Below, piece after piece: positions 19,660 to 27,332 of a stretch of 32,000 nt of DNA (the stretch's first letter is position 1; every line of letters starts with the position of its first letter). Made by a program: the position numbers and the translations under genes. This DNA comes from Sinorhizobium meliloti (GTDB taxonomy: Bacteria; Pseudomonadota; Alphaproteobacteria; Rhizobiales; Rhizobiaceae). A model generated the notes under the pieces. It was given only the letters and a program-made list of their open reading frames with translations, searched no databases and had not been told where the DNA came from. The stretch is from assembly GCF_017876815.1 (NCBI RefSeq), contig NZ_JAGIOS010000001.1, forward strand, positions 2,250,001-2,282,000, given 5' to 3'.

Positions 19660-20046
19660 CTATTTGGGATGCTGCTTCAGGTAGGCGATCACATTGGCAA
19701 TCTCCTCGTCCTTCTTGAGGCCGGGGAATACCATCTTGGTGCCTTTGACCTTGGCCCTGGGATTACGGAGATATTCGGCCAGCGTCGCGTCGTCCCAGAC
19801 GAGGCCACCCTTGCCCGCATCAATCATGGCTTGCGAATATTTGAAGTCAGCATGGGTGCCGGCCGTCCGGCCGATGACGCCTTGCAGCGAAGGGCCGACC
19901 TTGTTCTGGTCCTTGTCGATCACGTGACAGGTGGCGCATTTCTTGAAGACGGTGGCGCCGGCCTCGGCATCGCCCTCCTGGGCGAGCCCGGCGACCGGAC
20001 AGAGCGAGAGTGCCGAAAAAGACAGGGCAGCAAGTGCAATTCGCAT
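19660..20046 (-). CDS. Class I c-type cytochrome (cytochrome c2/c550-like), periplasmic
   Basis: Signal peptide MRIALAALSFSALSLCPVAGLAQE, heme motif CATCH and distal Met in KGTKMVFPG. GAGGAAG lies upstream. Confidence 0.9.
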   Translation of the reverse strand: MRIALAALSFSALSLCPVAGLAQEGDAEAGATVFKKCATCHVIDKDQNKVGPSLQGVIGRTAGTHADFKYSQAMIDAGKGGLVWDDATLAEYLRNPRAKVKGTKMVFPGLKKDEEIANVIAYLKQHPK

Positions 20047-20246
20047 GATACTTCCTCAATTTCGCCCGGCGCGGGGCAAGGAAGGCTATCGTCAAATCTG
20101 CTTTGGCGGTGCTTGCTTCTCTTAAGGAATGGTGCGCCGGGGCGGTTGATACGTGCGACAGGAAAGAAGCTAGTCCATGCCGTAGAGAAGTCAATTGCTC
20201 CTTCTAGGTAAGCCTGAACCTGCTGGGCCGCCATTCGGGGCTTGCG

Positions 20247-21314
20247 TCAGACGCGTTTGCCCTCCGCATCGAAGAAATGCAGGTGATGAGCGGGGAAGTG
20301 GACGGGGATCGTGCCGGACGCCGTCAGGAAGGATCGGTCGTTGGTGAAGACCTTGAAGGCCGCCCGCCCGAGCGAGAGATGCAGGATGATGCCGAAGCCG
20401 GTCGGCTCGACCAGGTCGACGCCGGCAAGCAGCGTCTCCGGGCCGTGGCCGGCAAGCACGACATGTTCGGGACGGATGCCGAGCGTCACCTTTGAGTTAT
20501 TCGAAACGGGCGCGGCCGCGTCGAGCGGAATGCCGATCTCATCCGACATCTCGAAGCGCGGCGCGTCGCCCGCGTGGTAGGCACCCTCGAAGAAATTCAT
20601 GCCCGGCGAGCCGATGAAGCCGGCGACGAAAAGGTTGGCAGGACGGTCGTAAAGATCGAGCGGGCTTCCGACCTGCTGGACCACGCCGCCATTCATGGCG
20701 ACGATCCGGTCTGCGAGCGTCATCGCCTCGATCTGATCGTGCGTCACATAGATGGAGGTGGCGCCGAGATCCTTGTGCAGTTTCTTGATCTCGGCGCGCA
20801 TCTGCTCGCGCAGGCGCGCATCGAGGTTGGAGAGCGGTTCGTCGAAGAGAAACGCCTTCGGCTGGCGCACGATGGCGCGGCCCATGGCGACGCGCTGGCG
20901 CTGGCCGCCGGAGAGCGCCTTGGGGCGGCGGTCGAGCAACGGGTCGAGGCCGAGCTTGGCAGCGGCGCCCGCAACGACCGTCGTTATCCTGTCCTTGGCC
21001 GTCTTGCGGAGCCTCAGGCTGTAGCTCATGTTCCTGGCGACCGACATATGCGGGTAGAGCGCATAGGACTGGAACACCATGGCGATGTCGCGGTCCTTCG
21101 GGGCGAGTTCGTTGACCCGCCTGCCGGCGATGCGGATCTCGCCGCCGGTCACGCTCTCAAGCCCGGCGATCATGCGCAGAAGGGTCGACTTGCCGCAGCC
21201 GGAGGGACCGACGAGCACGACGAATTCGCCGTCGCTGATCTTGAGGTCGACGTCGTGCAGCACCGGGTGGGTACCGTAGGACTTCTTGATGTTGGCGATG
21301 TCGATGGAAGCCAT
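20247..21314 (-). CDS. Sugar ABC transporter ATP-binding protein (MalK/UgpC type, CUT1)
   Basis: Walker [10 protein letters not shown], signature LSGGQRQR, Walker B FLFDEPLS and a C-terminal regulatory (TOBE-like) domain. Confidence 0.9.
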
Positions 21315-21320
21315 TGCGTA

Positions 21321-22154
21321 TCAGCCTTTCACCGCGCCGGCCGTGAGGCCCTGGACGAGATAGCGTTGAATGAGGAGGAAGAAGAGGCAGGCCGGTATCA
21401 GCGCCAGCACGCCGGCGGCCATCATCTGCCCGAAGTCGACCGAGAATTTCGAAACGAAGGACAGGAGCCCGACCGGGAAGGTCGCCTGCGCGTTGCCGGA
21501 GATCAGCATCAGCGAGAAGAGCAGTTCGCTCCAGGCGGCGGTGAAGACGAAGCCGAGGGTGGCGGCGATCCCAGGCAGGGTCAGCGGCAGGATGATCTGG
21601 CGGAAAGCGACGAACTGCGTCGCGCCGTCGATCATTGCCGCCTCTTCCAGGTCCTTCGGAATGCCATCGAAGAAGGACTGCATCAGGAATGTCGCGAAGG
21701 GAACGTTGAAGGCGGTGTAGACGACGACGAGCCCGGTGAGGCTGTTGGTCAGCCCCAGCGGCGAGAGTATCTTGAAGATCGGCGCGACCAGCATCACCAG
21801 GGGAAACATCTGCGTCAGCAGCATCAGCGTGACCAGCCAGTATTTGCCGCGGAACCGGAAGCGCGAGAGCGCGTAGCCGGAGAGCGAGGCGAGGATGGTG
21901 ACGATGACGGCGGTCGACCCGGAAACGATCAGGCTGTTGCGGAAGAACACCGGGAAGGCGCTGTGCCGCAGCACGAAGTCGAAGTGTTCGAGGCTCGCCC
22001 GCGACGGCCAGAGACGAATGCCCTCCGAATAGAGGAGATCGTTCGGCGTGACGGCGACCTTGAGCAGCCAGAAGAGCGGGAAGAGCGCGAAGGCGATATA
22101 AGCGAGGACCGCCAGGCGATGGGCAATGGTCAGAAATGCTTGCTTGGCGCGCAT
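21321..22154 (-). CDS. Carbohydrate ABC transporter permease (MalG-like)
   Basis: 277 aa, about 6 TM helices, with the EAA-loop region ...DLEEAAMIDGATQFVAFRQIILP... Confidence 0.85.
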   Translation of the reverse strand: MRAKQAFLTIAHRLAVLAYIAFALFPLFWLLKVAVTPNDLLYSEGIRLWPSRASLEHFDFVLRHSAFPVFFRNSLIVSGSTAVIVTILASLSGYALSRFRFRGKYWLVTLMLLTQMFPLVMLVAPIFKILSPLGLTNSLTGLVVVYTAFNVPFATFLMQSFFDGIPKDLEEAAMIDGATQFVAFRQIILPLTLPGIAATLGFVFTAAWSELLFSLMLISGNAQATFPVGLLSFVSKFSVDFGQMMAAGVLALIPACLFFLLIQRYLVQGLTAGAVKG

Positions 22155-22158
22155 GGTT

Positions 22159-23094
22159 TCAATCCTTGCTCAGGAGCCACTGCCTGAGGATCACGATCAG
22201 CAATGAATAGGCGAGGAGCAGCGCCAGCAGGACCAGCGCGATTGCCGAGGCATAGCCGAAATCCAGCCGTTTGAACGCCTGGGTGAAGATGTAGCTTGCG
22301 ACGATCTGGGTTCGGTCCGCCGGTCCGCCATTGGTCATGACGATGATGAGATCGGCGAAATTGGAGATCCAGACCGTGCGCAGCAGAATGGTGATCGCGA
22401 TCGTCGGCGCCAGGAAGGGAAGCGTGATCGAAAGGAAACGCTGCAGCGGGCCGGCCCCGTCTATGCTCGCCGCCTCGTAGAGGTCGCGCGGGATCGCCTG
22501 GAGTGCTGCGAGCAGGGTGATCGCGAAGAAGGGAATGCCCCACCAGATATTGGCGACGATCGGTCCCCACATGGCAAGCTGGGGATCGGACAGGATGTTG
22601 GTCGGCTGGCTCATGATGCCGAGGGCGAAGAGCCAGTGCGGCAGCGGGCCGACGACGGGGTTGAAGAGCCAGGCCCAGTTGAGGCCGGCCAGGAAACTCG
22701 GCACCGCCCAGGGCAGGAAGACGAGCGCCTGCGCGATCGCGCGGCCATGGAACGGTTTGTCGAGCAGGAGCGCCAGTATGAGGCCGAAGGCGAATTGCAG
22801 GAAGACCGAGGCGCCTGTCCACCAGAGCGTGTTGCGCAGCGATCGGAAGAATGCCTGGTCCTGGGCGAGCGCACGGAAGTGGTCGAGGCCGACGAAACCG
22901 CCGGAGAAGGGGTTGAGCAGCTGGATATCGCGGAAGGCGTAGGAGATGCCGAGCACCAGAGGCACGAGCATGACCGTAACGATCAGGATGAGCGCCGGAG
23001 CGGTATAGAGATAAGGCGCAGAGGCGTCGGCGATCCGCTTCATCAGCGGCGGACGGGTTGCGGGCAGGCCGTCATGGCGTGCGGCATAGGCCAT
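22159..23094 (-). CDS. Carbohydrate ABC transporter permease (MalF-like)
   Basis: 311 aa, multi-TM, with EAA loop ...LYEAASIDGAGPLQRFLSITLP... Confidence 0.85.
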   Translation of the reverse strand: MAYAARHDGLPATRPPLMKRIADASAPYLYTAPALILIVTVMLVPLVLGISYAFRDIQLLNPFSGGFVGLDHFRALAQDQAFFRSLRNTLWWTGASVFLQFAFGLILALLLDKPFHGRAIAQALVFLPWAVPSFLAGLNWAWLFNPVVGPLPHWLFALGIMSQPTNILSDPQLAMWGPIVANIWWGIPFFAITLLAALQAIPRDLYEAASIDGAGPLQRFLSITLPFLAPTIAITILLRTVWISNFADLIIVMTNGGPADRTQIVASYIFTQAFKRLDFGYASAIALVLLALLLAYSLLIVILRQWLLSKD

Positions 23095-23159
23095 CGATCG
23101 AAATTTCCCCTTTTTTGACCGCCGTTATCGATCGGCGTGCCTTTTCCTGCGTCGGACGA

Positions 23160-23183
23160 CCGGCGGCGGCTGACCGCCGCCGG
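23160..23183 (-). terminator. Perfect 10-bp GC hairpin after the binding-protein gene (intra-operon attenuator candidate)
   Basis: CCGGCGGCGG-ctga-CCGCCGCCGG, verified base by base, 9 nt after the SBP stop codon. Confidence 0.4.
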
Positions 23184-23191
23184 TGCCTGCG

Positions 23192-24454
23192 TTACTTCTT
23201 GTTTGCGAGGTATTTCTGCTGCGCCTTGGTCAGGTAGTCGGCCCATTGGTTGGCGAGCTCTTCCGGCGTGATGTCGCCGAGCAGGGCCTCCTGGGTCGTC
23301 TTGATGGCGAGCGAATCCTTGAAGAAGGCGAATTCTTCGAGATAGGTCGGCATGACCGTCAGCACGACGTCCTTGTCGGCGAGTTCGTCGAACCAGCCCT
23401 TGAACTGCGGGCTCGCATAGAAGGGGTCCTTCTCGGCCGACTTATGGACGGGCAGCGCGCCGGTGCGCTTGTTCCACTCGATATTGCCTTCCGGGCCCTC
23501 CAGCGTTTCGATCAGCTTCCAGGAGAGGTCCTTGTTCTGGCTGGCGGCAAGAATCGACCAGCCGGCAAAGCCGATCGTGGTAAAGGCCTTGCCGCTCGGC
23601 CCCTTGGGCATGGTGGTCACGCCGAAATCCTCCGGCTTCATGCGCTGGGCGATCGCGATCAACGCGTCCGGATCCTGGTCGAGGAAGGCGCAGGTGCCGC
23701 TGTAGAAGCCGGCGACGATCTCGTTGAAGCCCCAGTTGACGCTGTCCTTGGGGGCGAGGCCGTTCTTGTAGAGGTCGATGACCCAGGTGAGGCCCTTGAT
23801 CCAGCCTTCGCTGTTCATCGTCGAGGTGCCGTCCTCGTTGAAGAACTTGTTGTCGCCGGCCATGGTCGCGCCGAACATCACCCAGCCGTTGAGGCCGCCC
23901 GGACCGCCGCGCAGGCAATAGCCCGATTTGCCCGGCAGCTTGGAGACCGCCTCGGAAGCCTTGACGAAGTCGTCCATCGTCTTCGGCGGCTCGGCGACGC
24001 CCGCTTCGGAGAGCAGCTTCTTGTTGTAGAACATCGCCCGGAGATAGAAGCCGTAGGGCAGCATATAGGCGGTGTCGTTGACGTCGCGGCCGAGTTCGAG
24101 CGCGCGCTCGGTGAGGCCGGGCGTATGCTCCCACTTTTCGAGATAGGGCTCTAGGCTTTCGAGCATGCCGTTATTGGCGTAGAGCGACAGCCAGGTGTCC
24201 GGCATTTCCATGACGTCGGGGATTTCGCCGGCCGAGACCATGGTCGCGAATTTCTGGAAGGCTTCGCCCCAGGGCAGCGAAATGATCTCCACGGTCGTAC
24301 CGGGATTCGCCTGTTCGAACCTGGCGACGATCGACTTCAGCGTTTCGGTGCGCTCGGGACTGGTGATGACCTCGACGAGCTTCAGCTTCGTATCGGCAAG
24401 GGCGCTGCCGGCCATCAGCGTGGCAAGCAGGGTGGCTGTGATCAGTTTCCTCAT
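23192..24454 (-). CDS. ABC transporter extracellular solute-binding protein, family 1 (CUT1 sugar/oligosaccharide type)
   Basis: 420 aa with Sec signal MRKLITATLLATLMAGSALA. The composition is typical of family-1 SBPs. Confidence 0.85.
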   Translation of the reverse strand: MRKLITATLLATLMAGSALADTKLKLVEVITSPERTETLKSIVARFEQANPGTTVEIISLPWGEAFQKFATMVSAGEIPDVMEMPDTWLSLYANNGMLESLEPYLEKWEHTPGLTERALELGRDVNDTAYMLPYGFYLRAMFYNKKLLSEAGVAEPPKTMDDFVKASEAVSKLPGKSGYCLRGGPGGLNGWVMFGATMAGDNKFFNEDGTSTMNSEGWIKGLTWVIDLYKNGLAPKDSVNWGFNEIVAGFYSGTCAFLDQDPDALIAIAQRMKPEDFGVTTMPKGPSGKAFTTIGFAGWSILAASQNKDLSWKLIETLEGPEGNIEWNKRTGALPVHKSAEKDPFYASPQFKGWFDELADKDVVLTVMPTYLEEFAFFKDSLAIKTTQEALLGDITPEELANQWADYLTKAQQKYLANKK

Positions 24455-24491
24455 TTTATCGTTCCCTTTGTTCTCGCTGGTTGCGTGTTCG

Positions 24492-25664
24492 TCAGCCTGA
24501 CGAAGCGGCCGTCATCGCCGCTTCGAGATCGCTCCAGAGGGCCTCCGTTCCCTCCAGGCCGACATGGAGCCGTACCGACCGCGGTGAAATGCCGAAGGCT
24601 GCCGCGGAATTGGGCTCGGCTTTCTGCGCCAGAACGACTTCGCCCGGCACGATGAGGCTTTCGTGGCCGCCCCAGGAGACGCCGAGCTTGAACAGTTTCA
24701 GGTGATCGGCGAATCGGCGCACGTCGACGCCTTCGCGGAAGATGAAGGAGAAGAGCCCGGAGGTGCCGGAGAGACCGGGAGGCAGATGGTTGCCGAGGCC
24801 CGGGTGGCAGACGGTTTCCACCAGCGGATGCTCGGCCAGGCGGCGGGCGACCGCGAGCGCCGAGCGCTCATGTGCCTTCATCCGCACCGGCAGCGTGCGC
24901 ATGCCCCGGATCAGCAGCCAGGCGTCGAAGGGCGAAAGCTTGCCGCCGAGATAGGGATAGGCTTCCGAACGGATGCGGCCGATCAGCTCGCCCGACCCGG
25001 CGACGACGCCGGCGACGACATCGCTATGGCCACCAAGATATTTCGATGCGGAGTGAATGACGAGGTCGACGCCGAGCGAGACCGGCTGCTGAAACACCGG
25101 GCTCGCCCAGCTGTTGTCGATGACCGTGACGATCCCCTGCCGGCGTGCAAGAGCCGCAAGCGCTGCGACATCGTGCGTGTCCATCACCCAGCTGGTCGGG
25201 CTTTCCATGTAGAAGAGCTTTGCGCCGGGAAGCGCCTTGGCAACCGCCTCTTCGTCGCGCCCGTCGACATAGGTGACCTCGACACGCATGCGCTTCAGAT
25301 GCGTGCCGAAGAGTCGGAACGCATCGGGATAGACATGCTTCACGGCGACGATGCGGTCGCCCGGCTCGACGAAGGAGAGGACTGTGGAGGAGATCGCCGA
25401 CATGCCGCTTGCGAAACCGATGGCGTCCTCGGCGCCTTCGAGCTTCGCCAGCATCTCCTCGAAATGCCTGACCGTCGGATTGAGGCCGCGGGTGTAGATG
25501 GGCCGCACGCGCTCTCCCCGATAGGAGGCGACCATCTCGTCATAGTCCTTGAAGGTGAAGAGCGAGGTCTGCACGATCGGCGGTACGACGGCGTCGAAAG
25601 CGTTGCTCTCGTCATGCGCGACGATAAGGGAGGCTCTCTCGAACGGATCGAGACCGTTGTTCAT
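24492..25664 (-). CDS. Cys/Met-metabolism PLP-dependent enzyme (cystathionine beta-/gamma-lyase or gamma-synthase family)
   Basis: 390 aa. The PLP-lysine motif SASKYLGGHSDVVAG and DNSWASP are typical of the trans-sulfuration fold-type I family. Confidence 0.85.
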   Translation of the reverse strand: MNNGLDPFERASLIVAHDESNAFDAVVPPIVQTSLFTFKDYDEMVASYRGERVRPIYTRGLNPTVRHFEEMLAKLEGAEDAIGFASGMSAISSTVLSFVEPGDRIVAVKHVYPDAFRLFGTHLKRMRVEVTYVDGRDEEAVAKALPGAKLFYMESPTSWVMDTHDVAALAALARRQGIVTVIDNSWASPVFQQPVSLGVDLVIHSASKYLGGHSDVVAGVVAGSGELIGRIRSEAYPYLGGKLSPFDAWLLIRGMRTLPVRMKAHERSALAVARRLAEHPLVETVCHPGLGNHLPPGLSGTSGLFSFIFREGVDVRRFADHLKLFKLGVSWGGHESLIVPGEVVLAQKAEPNSAAAFGISPRSVRLHVGLEGTEALWSDLEAAMTAASSG

Positions 25665-26377
25665 TTGGACATTTCCTTGATGTCTTCCTCGACGACCGCG
25701 AGGATCTTCAGCGTTTCCGCGCGGGCGGCCTCGGCGTCCTGCGCCGCGATTGCGTCGAAGAGCGTCCGGTGAAAGGGAAAGGAGCGCCTGGCGAAATCCG
25801 AACGGTCGAAGGGCTCGTCCCAGAAGCGTTCGAAGGCCTCGCGCATCTGCTCGAGCAGTTGTTTGAAGAGCGGATTGTGGGTCGCGTCGTAGATCGCAAG
25901 ATGGAACGCGAGGTCTTCCGGGCCGGACGTTCCCTTGGCGAGATGGACCCGCTCCATCTCATCGAGCTTCGTTTCGATGTTGACGAGGTCGGCCTCCGTG
26001 CGGCGCCGGGATGCGACCATGCCGGCCTCGACCTCGATGCCGCGCCGCACTTCGAGCGTCTGCAGAAGCGCGTCGCGAAGGTGCTCGGTGTCGAGCGCCA
26101 GCGGCATATGGATGGTCGCGTTGGAAATGGCGCGCAGGAGATAGGTGCCGCTGCCCTTACGCGCCTCGACGACGCCGAGCGCCTGGAAGTGGCTCAGCAC
26201 CTCACGAATGGTGGAGCGGCCGACGGCGAGCGCTGCCATCAGTTCCCGCTCGGCCGGCAGCCGGTCCCCGGGGTTCAGCCCCGATCTTTGAATGAAATCG
26301 GCAAGAGCGGATATCACCTGCTGCGCCCGGTCTGCGGGCGGCAGGGGCAGGAGCATCGCTCTATCCCGCAGGGGCAT
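25661..26377 (-). CDS. GntR-family transcriptional regulator, FadR subfamily (FCD domain)
   Basis: ATG 26377 is preceded by GGGAGAA. Winged HTH ...LPAERELMAALAVGRSTIREVLSHFQALGVVEARKGSGTYL followed by a helical FCD-like domain. ATGA overlap with the PLP enzyme start codon. The ORF's upstream 74 codons run through a repeat and are discounted. Confidence 0.8.
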   Translation of the reverse strand: MPLRDRAMLLPLPPADRAQQVISALADFIQRSGLNPGDRLPAERELMAALAVGRSTIREVLSHFQALGVVEARKGSGTYLLRAISNATIHMPLALDTEHLRDALLQTLEVRRGIEVEAGMVASRRRTEADLVNIETKLDEMERVHLAKGTSGPEDLAFHLAIYDATHNPLFKQLLEQMREAFERFWDEPFDRSDFARRSFPFHRTLFDAIAAQDAEAARAETLKILAVVEEDIKEMSK

Positions 26378-26464
26378 CCGGTTCTCCCAAGACCAGAATT
26401 GGTCTGACATCTGAGCAATATGCTGGGAATAGGAGAGGTGGTCAAGGGGCGAGTGAGCCGCAAT

Positions 26465-26600
26465 TTTGCCCCTCACCCTAGCCCTCTCCCCGCGCGCGGG
26501 GAGAGGGGACACCCTTGTGTTCCGCCTCAGTCTCAATGGGTCAAAAACGGACTCGTCCCCTCTCCCCGCAAGCGGGGAGAGGGTTAGGGTGAGGGGCAAA
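26465..26600. repeat. Inverted pair of 46-nt GC-rich repeat units (43/46 complementary) separated by 44 nt
   Basis: Arms 26465-26510 and 26555-26600 were paired base by base. Each arm also contains its own palindrome (CTCTCCCCGCGCGCGGGGAGAG is perfect in the left arm). Translation gives the LSPLAGRGD / SPLPARGERARVRG peptides characteristic of this dispersed repeat class. Confidence 0.85.
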
Positions 26601-26639
26601 TCTGGGGTTCAGACCTAGTGGAGCAAATCCGAGGCTCAT

Positions 26640-27332
26640 TTACCCCGCCAGCGCGAGCAGCTTGCCGATCGCCTGCTGATCGAAGCCGCCGATGCCCTCG
26701 CGGATGTCGGCGGCGATGGCTCGCGCCACGGCGTCCTCGTCACGCCTTCTCAGGGCCTCGATGGCCTCGCGGTGACGGTCGATGACATAGAATTTCGTGA
26801 CGTGCTCCATGGCAATGCCGAGGATCGGCCCGAGCTGGAGCCAGAGGCTCTCGATGAGCGGCATGGCGACCTGATCGGGATTGGCCGTATAGATCTGACG
26901 GTGAAATTGCTGATTGGCGATCAGCGCCTGCGCCTTCTGCCCCGCGAGGATCGCGGCCTCGATCGTATCGTCCAGCGCGACGATGCGGTCTATCTGCCGG
27001 TCGGAGAGATGGGCGACGGCCCTGCGGGCGGCGTGGCTTTCAAGCGCGATACGAAGCGAGATCAGCTCCTCGAAACGCGCCGGCGTGATCCGCGGCACGA
27101 CGATGCGCCGGTTCTCCAGAAATTGCAGGGCGCCGATCGAGGTCAGCTGACGCAGTGCTTCGCGCACCGGCGTAGGGCTGCTCTCCAGCGCGTTTGCGAG
27201 CCCGCGTATGGTGACGGAGGTTCCGGGGCGGAAGGCGCCCACCATGATCGCCTGCCTGAGACGCGCAAAGGCATAGTCGTGGGTCGTCATACCTTCCGGC
27301 CGATCAAGGGCGGGCAGGGCAAGGGTCTTCAA
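26640..27332 (-). CDS. GntR-family transcriptional regulator (FCD domain)
   Basis: TTG start at 27332 with GGGAGGA 8-9 nt upstream; the alternative ATG 27290 has its SD too close. HTH ...VTIRGLANALESSPTPVREALRQLTSIGAL... It is divergent from the glutamine-synthetase-like gene. Confidence 0.8.
   Translation of the reverse strand: MKTLALPALDRPEGMTTHDYAFARLRQAIMVGAFRPGTSVTIRGLANALESSPTPVREALRQLTSIGALQFLENRRIVVPRITPARFEELISLRIALESHAARRAVAHLSDRQIDRIVALDDTIEAAILAGQKAQALIANQQFHRQIYTANPDQVAMPLIESLWLQLGPILGIAMEHVTKFYVIDRHREAIEALRRRDEDAVARAIAADIREGIGGFDQQAIGKLLALAG

Follow-up and report, generated by a model that had tools for sequence, protein, structure and literature searches.

A 32,000-nucleotide (nt) stretch of the Sinorhizobium meliloti chromosome (contig NZ_JAGIOS010000001.1, positions 2,250,001–2,282,000; hereafter the window) carries, on its minus strand at positions 20247–26377, six open reading frames (ORFs) that form one compact unit. 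They encode a FadR-type regulator, a pyridoxal 5'-phosphate (PLP) enzyme related to the siderophore-biosynthetic protein VbsL, and an ATP-binding cassette (ABC) importer of the CUT1 type. The reading that we favor, while holding it a little short of evenly probable, is that these genes make up a self-contained and horizontally mobile cassette for the uptake and conversion of a single small, hydrophilic compound, in which the PLP enzyme would be of the epimerase or racemase type. The parts are ordinary members of known families; their combination is not a described system. The features of the unit and of the region preceding it, with positions counted in the window, are as follows:

26417–26445, minus strand: promoter-like site (−35 TTGACC, 17-nt spacer, −10 CATATT)
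26397–26410, minus strand: candidate operator ATGTCAGACCAATT, 14 nt, reading AATTGGTCTGACAT on the opposite strand
25661–26377, minus strand: GntR-family regulator of the FadR subfamily, with a winged helix-turn-helix and an FCD domain, 238 amino acids (aa) (Pfam)
24492–25664, minus strand: PLP enzyme of NF004627 (PRK05968), VbsL-like, 390 aa (Pfam and NCBIfam)
23192–24454, minus strand: family-1 solute-binding protein, periplasmic, with an N-terminal signal peptide, 420 aa (SBP_bac_1)
23158–23185, minus strand: G+C-rich hairpin without a U tail, directly 3' of the binding-protein stop codon (folding)
22159–23094, minus strand: ABC permease 1, MalF/UgpA-like, 311 aa (BPD_transp_1)
21321–22154, minus strand: ABC permease 2, MalG/UgpE-like, 277 aa (BPD_transp_1)
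20247–21314, minus strand: ABC ATPase of the MalK/UgpC type with C-terminal OB/TOBE domains, 355 aa (NF008653)

Organization and distribution of the cassette

A preliminary description of this DNA, made from the sequence alone, had placed six minus-strand genes here with an ATGA overlap and a 37-nt gap, and the ORFs are found exactly so. The stop codon of the regulator gene overlaps the start codon of the PLP gene (ATGA, 25664–25661), 37 nt separate the PLP gene from that of the binding protein, 97 nt lie between the genes for the binding protein and permease 1, and the last two gaps are of 4 and 6 nt. The regulator ATG at 26377 is preceded by GGGAGAA. The view of the genes as a single operon-like unit is likewise upheld by their compactness and by the sigma-70-like matches in 19900–26700, of which there is only one, upstream of the regulator gene, and none inside the unit. 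The gap between the binding-protein gene and permease 1 contains the stem of the hairpin (CCGGCGGCGG/CCGCCGCCGG), and the 116-nt intergenic fold reaches −46 kcal/mol (z = −2.8 vs. shuffled sequences); the hairpin presumably raises the yield of the binding-protein message. Within the six-gene unit no glycosidase, kinase or dehydrogenase is encoded, and as the genes of a standard sugar or sulfur-amino-acid pathway do not accompany it, the earlier statement that it is neither kind of operon holds.

Public annotation gives the cassette genes generic names only; an S. meliloti record in which the regulator is 100% identical and likewise 717 nt long has it as "FadR family transcriptional regulator." In S. 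meliloti Ak57 the protein is 100% identical to the window PLP enzyme and the gene order also matches. The Ak57 record CP090106.1 (3.72 Mb), identical to the window at 100%, is titled "plasmid pSymB"; it is chromosome-sized with chromosome-type content, including cytochrome oxidase genes, and the title looks wrong.

The cassette is common: a scan of species-representative genomes returned 436 relatives, and the best 80 loci, all from other species, were inspected. In 80 of these 80 loci (on contigs long enough to show them) all six genes are present, their order is unchanged and the regulator gene still overlaps the enzyme gene, so that the arrangement is not a product of chance. The loci belong to Ensifer, Sinorhizobium, Pararhizobium, Rhizobium, Neorhizobium, Mesorhizobium, Pseudaminobacter, Shinella, Agrobacterium and Ferirhizobium. 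An association between the PLP enzyme and a CUT1 importer, which the preliminary description had put forward for a neighborhood survey, is thus conserved in these loci, and it is conserved in diverged lineages and on plasmids as well. The flanks are conserved only within Ensifer/Sinorhizobium and are wholly different elsewhere; the survey of flanking genes yielded 126 distinct clusters at most two genes from the cassette, and no recurrent accessory enzyme among them.

Within the genus, the cassette is present in each of the 24 species genomes sampled. For the wider distribution, the cut-off of NF004627 was applied to a class and a phylum sample of about 400 genomes each. In the class sample (400 genomes) the enzyme family exceeded the cut-off in only four other genomes; in the phylum sample 13 of the 15 genomes from the family to which the window belongs had it, as did four genomes of two other alphaproteobacterial families. 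It was not found above the cut-off in 16 genomes from other families of the order.

The cassettes of other alphaproteobacterial families are diverged, with an enzyme identity of 48–78%. VbsL-type paralogues excepted, the enzyme stays with the regulator, the binding protein and the permeases down to 48–50% identity of the enzyme and 53–60% identity of the binding protein; the ATPase gene is missing in two diverged lineages (L095 and L096). In the former, a gene for a TauE/SafE sulfite exporter (L095:5095–5862) stands tail-to-tail with the ATPase-less cassette, a single case that gives at most a faint hint of a sulfonated substrate.

Plasmids with annotation also bear the same cassette, overlap included, in Rhizobium johnstonii 3841 (pRL11) and in the gammaproteobacteria Microbulbifer and Pantoea dispersa, and 339 plasmid records match, a number that counts cassettes and VbsL-type copies together. 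On the Microbulbifer plasmid a Gfo/Idh/MocA oxidoreductase gene (L123:14464–15525) follows 134 nt past the ATPase gene on the same strand, in this genome only. Plasmid matches in Tritonibacter and Thioclava, along with alphaproteobacterial carriers of lower G+C content, may extend the cassette to the marine alphaproteobacteria. Since it also occurs in Pantoea and in marine Microbulbifer, the substrate is probably not specific to legumes.

The PLP enzyme and its kinship with VbsL

The family assignments that had been made for the regulator, the PLP enzyme and the importer agree with both Pfam and NCBIfam. The PLP enzyme matches Pfam PF01053 (Cys_Met_Meta_PP) over positions 9–380 of 381 with 343.9 bits (cut-off 27), and the only NCBIfam model that it passes is NF004627 (PRK05968; 722.5 bits, cut-off 508, positions 1–388 of 389), the NCBI title of which is still "hypothetical protein." It remains below the cut-offs for methionine gamma-lyase (TIGR01328; 313.5 vs. 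549.7 bits), cystathionine beta-lyase (TIGR01324; 253.3 vs. 365.9 bits), cystathionine gamma-synthase (TIGR02080; 262.6 vs. 504.6 bits) and O-succinylhomoserine sulfhydrylase (TIGR01325; 249.8 vs. 510.1 bits). Although it shares PF01053, the fold and the PLP lysine motif with the trans-sulfuration enzymes, these failed equivalog cut-offs indicate that it is not one of them. A literature search for PRK05968/NF004627 found no paper on the subfamily in the library covered.

The SASKYLGGHSD motif noted earlier is present, with Lys208 (SASK208Y) as the PLP lysine. The equivalents of Tyr112, Asp183 and Arg365 as well as Tyr57-x-Arg59 are retained. Lys208, D183 (viDNS) and R365 (vRLhVGLE) align with residues of Pseudomonas putida methionine gamma-lyase that we take to be Lys211, Asp186 and Arg375. 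The catalytic residues are all conserved across relatives of 48–100% identity. Because the PLP-binding lysine is kept along with the tyrosine that stacks on the cofactor, the aspartate that pairs with its pyridine nitrogen and the arginine that binds the alpha-carboxylate, the substrate should be an alpha-amino acid with a free amino and a free carboxyl group.

The closest solved structure is that of an archaeal L-Ala/L-Glu racemase (9iz5, E 1e-76), which ranks narrowly above methionine gamma-lyases; a literature search for the code 9IZ5 gave no match. Both proteins contain the SWGxHE(S/N)L(I/V)VP stretch and lack an MTH motif. The racemase, however, is only about 40% identical and comes from another domain of life and another gene context, and with 370.1 bits against the 629 required by NF041088 the window enzyme is not a member of its family.

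A tree built from 143 relatives places the PRK05968 proteins in a single clade within a large uncharacterized superclade, the members of which score nearly equally against PRK05968 and against the racemase model. Next to distant superclade members (40–42% identical) in two unrelated genomes we observed genes for an NhaC-family transporter (L097:7931–9394; L106:7932–9425), which points to a different, recurrent association of transporter and enzyme.

Inside the PRK05968 clade lies a group of paralogues that are approximately 51% identical to the window enzyme and are encoded without a transporter. Its Ensifer members adjoin genes for a non-ribosomal peptide synthetase (NRPS), an IucB-like acyltransferase and a MatE exporter. 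On an R. etli plasmid the cluster comprises genes for a phosphopantetheinyl transferase, an IucD-like hydroxylase, an NRPS, MbtH, an IucB-like protein, MatE, the PLP protein, a sigma factor and an acetyltransferase, together with fhu genes. This arrangement matches the published vicibactin gene order rpoI-vbsLDAGSO (PMC6421345), which identifies the PLP gene as vbsL. VbsL is named the acyl-hydroxyornithine epimerase of vicibactin synthesis (PMC12971057, citing Heemstra 2009).

The window enzyme and the protein at the vbsL position of R. etli IE4803 are 51% identical over their full length (E 1e-142), and a VbsL-type paralogue likewise exceeds the NF004627 cut-off, with 635 bits; VbsL is the sole characterized member of this family that we identified. 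The two share their PLP- and carboxylate-binding residues, and the VbsL group falls among the cassette enzymes: in the IQ-TREE phylogeny (LG+G4, 1000 ultrafast bootstraps) it is recovered with a support of 99, as sister to some of the cassette enzymes (support 88). The preliminary description had proposed placing the enzyme against MetB, MetC, MetZ and methionine gamma-lyase; it groups with VbsL in PRK05968 and stands apart from those models by score, which weakens a reading as a lyase.

The gene contexts differ. VbsL is encoded in a siderophore cluster under iron regulation, the other products of which include an NRPS, an N-hydroxylase, an acyltransferase like IucB, a MatE exporter and the extracytoplasmic function sigma factor RpoI, whereas the window enzyme is encoded with a GntR-family regulator and a CUT1 importer. 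Because it lacks a siderophore-cluster context, the window enzyme is not VbsL itself, and its substrate certainly differs from that of VbsL. No VbsL-type copy was found in the window genome. In the vicibactin-like cluster of Ensifer (L098:8135–9364; L099), the genes are followed by one for a member of the ornithine/diaminopimelate/arginine decarboxylase family and one for a DUF2339 membrane protein, neither of which is in the annotated R. etli vbs cluster; judging by this gene content, the Ensifer siderophore may differ from vicibactin.

The window genome encodes eight full-length PF01053 paralogues. Four of these exceed equivalog cut-offs, namely O-acetylhomoserine sulfhydrylase (MetY, 859 bits), O-succinylhomoserine sulfhydrylase (MetZ, 799 bits), cystathionine gamma-synthase (MetB, 651 bits) and cystathionine beta-lyase (MetC, 797 bits). 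As these functions are encoded elsewhere, the PLP gene of the cassette is not the housekeeping met gene that could have undone the preliminary description. Further Cys/Met-family paralogues are located on contig 1 (2567451–2568671), contig 4 (38205–39479) and contig 3 (750431–751525); one of the three is a PRK07049 "cystathionine gamma-synthase family protein" (804 bits), and the other two, which resemble an O-acetylhomoserine/O-acetylserine sulfhydrylase and a cystathionine beta-lyase, are below the respective cut-offs.

Regulator, operator and importer

The regulator combines a GntR winged helix (59.9 bits) with an FCD domain (75.4 bits) in Pfam. Its top NCBIfam resemblances are LldR, NanR, UxuR and PdhR, each far under its cut-off. 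The upstream regions of many genera have in common a TTGAC box that is followed at 17 nt by a CATA(T/A)T box and then by ATGTCAGACCAATT. This last element is exact in 80 of 90 cassettes and present with at most one mismatch in 85 of them, and the exact boxes lie 18–56 nt upstream of the regulator start, with one exception at −117. In the cassettes with the most diverged regulators (32–45% identical), the box is inverted and carries one mismatch, or another sequence takes its place. In the window genome the box extends into the palindrome AGACCAATTCTGGTCT (26390–26405), and the left half of AATTGGTCTGACAT corresponds to what we take to be the half-site of LldR/PdhR-type operators.

Within the 7.34-Mb genome there is one exact copy of ATGTCAGACCAATT, and sites with two mismatches occur near the control level. 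A wider regulon was considered and rejected, as the genome-wide operator search returned only the operon's own site as exact; a two-mismatch site on contig 4, near a paralogue, is a chance match. Given this uniqueness the operon looks like a local, self-regulated unit, and the arrangement of the sequence suggests that the regulator represses its own operon only, acting at ATGTCAGACCAATT as a candidate box. Farther upstream, a G+C-rich compound palindrome with units CCCTCTCCCCGC and GCGGGGAGAGGG (26465–26600) spans the gap from the preceding GntR gene (stop codon at 26640) to the cassette promoter; it resembles the intergenic repeats that are dispersed in rhizobial genomes.

The importer has the complete CUT1 architecture: the binding protein is of family 1 and bears a signal peptide, both permeases are MalF/G-like, and the ATPase is of the MalK type, with OB/TOBE domains at its C terminus. 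Permease 1 scores 68.4 bits against BPD_transp_1, with UgpA (124) and MalF (108) as its best NCBIfam matches, and permease 2 scores 76.9 bits, with MalG (141) and GlcU (133). The ATPase passes NF008653 of the UgpC subfamily (498 bits, cut-off 432) and contains ABC_tran, OB_MalK and TOBE_2 domains.

The binding protein (SBP_bac_1, 155.7 bits) has an AlphaFold model with a mean pLDDT of 88, in which residues 1–18 are disordered. The model has a MalE-like fold, with TM scores of about 0.8 and 20–24% identity to di-/oligosaccharide-binding proteins and one dinucleotide-binding protein. At such low identity to proteins of known ligand no ligand can be assigned to it, and fold and Atlas searches returned generic MalE-like sugar binders and no specific ligand. 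Twenty orthologues, 54–96% identical, have many invariant Trp, Arg and Asp residues.

Proposed function and alternatives

In the mechanism that we propose, the FadR-type regulator would act at the box to keep its own operon repressed, and binding of the imported compound, or of a product of it, to the FCD domain would lift the repression. The cargo of the importer would be an alpha-amino acid whose amino and carboxyl groups are both free and whose side chain is bulky and polar, and either sugar-like or bearing a sugar or polyol. The PLP enzyme, a cytoplasmic protein, would then remove the alpha-proton and return it on the other face, acting as an epimerase or racemase, and the product would be a stereoisomer usable by general metabolism. 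With a substrate that has a leaving group at the beta or gamma position, elimination could instead follow from this carbanion. Inversion of a single center may suffice for entry into general metabolism, which would explain why the cassette contains no second enzyme. Both characterized relatives invert C-alpha and neither is a lyase, so that stereo-inversion is at least as likely as elimination.

Our best guess at the substrate is a hydrophilic, sugar-like alpha-amino acid that would undergo inversion at C-alpha or elimination. The more specific proposal of an undescribed catabolic or salvage route, which would start with import, by the CUT1 system, of an alpha-amino acid that resembles a sugar or is linked to one and may have a D center, and in which a VbsL-like epimerase would make this compound usable, is in our view less probable than not. 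There is a precedent for the transport step in the frlBONMD-FrlR system of Bacillus subtilis, in which a CUT1 importer and a GntR-family regulator serve the use of glycated amino acids by a kinase and a deglycase. That system indicates that CUT1 importers under GntR-family control can carry conjugates of sugars and amino acids; it differs from the cassette in having no PLP enzyme and a regulator of another GntR subfamily.

Several observations weigh against the epimerase or racemase reading. We know of no CUT1 importer with a documented D-amino-acid or simple amino-acid substrate, and the fold neighbors of the binding protein bind oligosaccharides. The DNSWASP and SWGGHESL stretches, together with the missing MTH motif, give the first shell of the active site a likeness to the genome's own cystathionine beta-lyase. 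NhaC-type transporters, such as those adjoining the distant superclade members, are the usual partners of methionine gamma-lyase genes. The reaction type is taken from relatives at 51% (VbsL) and about 40% (archaeal racemase) identity, and the backbone within the family tree is weak, with support values of 38–44. Co-transcription and repression at the box, too, are predictions from the DNA sequence.

The strongest alternative is that the imported compound is an amino acid joined by a beta or gamma C-S, C-O or C-N bond to a sugar, a polyol or another group, and that the PLP enzyme is a beta- or gamma-lyase, the products of which would be the freed group, pyruvate or 2-oxobutyrate, and ammonia. 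Loss of a beta leaving group from a C-alpha carbanion is chemically feasible, and the enzyme is a Cys/Met-family protein that retains the PLP-stacking tyrosine and the carboxylate-binding arginine as well as the stretches resembling cystathionine beta-lyase. One step would account for the absence of further enzymes here as well. FCD regulators typically sense carboxylic or keto acids, and LldR and PdhR are among the best resemblances of the regulator; the sulfite-exporter gene adjoining one diverged cassette also fits. On the other hand, the enzyme scores far too low for any of the lyase and synthase equivalogs, the HPAxMTH motif of gamma-enzymes is missing from it, and the sole characterized member of its subfamily is an epimerase. 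Moreover, we know of no candidate conjugate that occurs both in plant-root surroundings and in the sea. We consider this explanation unlikely, though one to be reckoned with; lyase-type elimination overall, when the amino-sugar-acid case discussed below is included, appears rather less than evenly probable.

These results bear directly on the preliminary description, which had suggested that a lyase would cleave the imported compound. As written, this does not fit the failed lyase and synthase cut-offs, the epimerase function of the characterized subfamily member and the racemase as the nearest structure, so that its interpretation is supported in part; the substrates that it named (a thio-ether, an opine, an Amadori compound or a glycosylated amino acid) are guesses. 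Among described lyase systems, the canavanine gamma-lyase locus of Pseudomonas canavaninivorans and Rhizobium leguminosarum resembles the cassette in linking a gamma-lyase-related PLP enzyme to an ABC importer. It imports a plant non-protein amino acid and comprises an amino-acid-type ABC transporter, a guanidine exporter, a homoserine dehydrogenase and aldehyde dehydrogenases (PMC9533460). These accessory genes are absent from the window and from the related cassettes, and we rejected the canavanine locus as an identification on this context alone.

A more specific form of elimination is that D-glucosaminate (2-amino-2-deoxy-gluconate) is deaminated and dehydrated to 2-keto-3-deoxygluconate, which would enter the Entner-Doudoroff pathway. 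This compound is an alpha-amino acid with a D center and a beta-hydroxyl group, and would suit a sugar-type importer, a lone enzyme and relatives that act on both faces of C-alpha; many FCD regulators, in addition, sense sugar acids. Growth on D-glucosaminic acid is documented for S. meliloti Rm2011, all tested Ensifer aridi and three strains of S. prairiense, the latter without use of gluconate (PMC4207669; PMC5237526; PMC12574840), and the growing S. prairiense strains have a cassette that is 97.7% identical. However, as all 24 genomes of the genus carry it, a comparison of growth phenotypes discriminates nothing. Furthermore, S. meliloti without both megaplasmids fails to grow even though the cassette is chromosomal, Rm1021 is reported as non-growing, a gene for a 2-keto-3-deoxygluconate kinase or aldolase is never adjacent in the flank surveys, and the structural neighbors of the binding protein bind di- and oligosaccharides. 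Together, this makes D-glucosaminate an improbable substrate.

It is very improbable that the PLP protein is mainly a regulatory partner that modulates the regulator or the transporter in the way of E. coli MalY, a C-S lyase with a second role in the control of the maltose system. The translational coupling of the enzyme gene to the regulator gene would agree with such a role, but MalY belongs to another PLP family (aminotransferase class I/II; PF00155 reaches 22.7 bits here), and the conservation of the catalytic residues over 48–100% identity argues for selection on catalysis. That the gene is a housekeeping methionine or cysteine gene and by chance a neighbor of a sugar transporter can practically be dismissed, as Pfam family membership is all that speaks for it, while MetB, MetC, MetZ and MetY are encoded elsewhere, and the PLP gene is sparse outside its own family and found only with the transporter or in siderophore clusters.

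The catabolic or salvage route proposed above, if true, would give this PLP subfamily its first non-biosynthetic role, and would mean that the siderophore epimerase VbsL arose from a cassette enzyme by duplication. The link to VbsL provides a concrete chemical hypothesis, and the conserved operator, unique in the genome, a ready reporter for inducer screens. Knowledge of the substrate would give a name to a transporter that is an orphan in two model rhizobia, on the S. meliloti chromosome and on pRL11 of R. johnstonii 3841, and would give the whole PLP subfamily a physiological role; it could also reveal a nutrient that root and algal habitats have in common.

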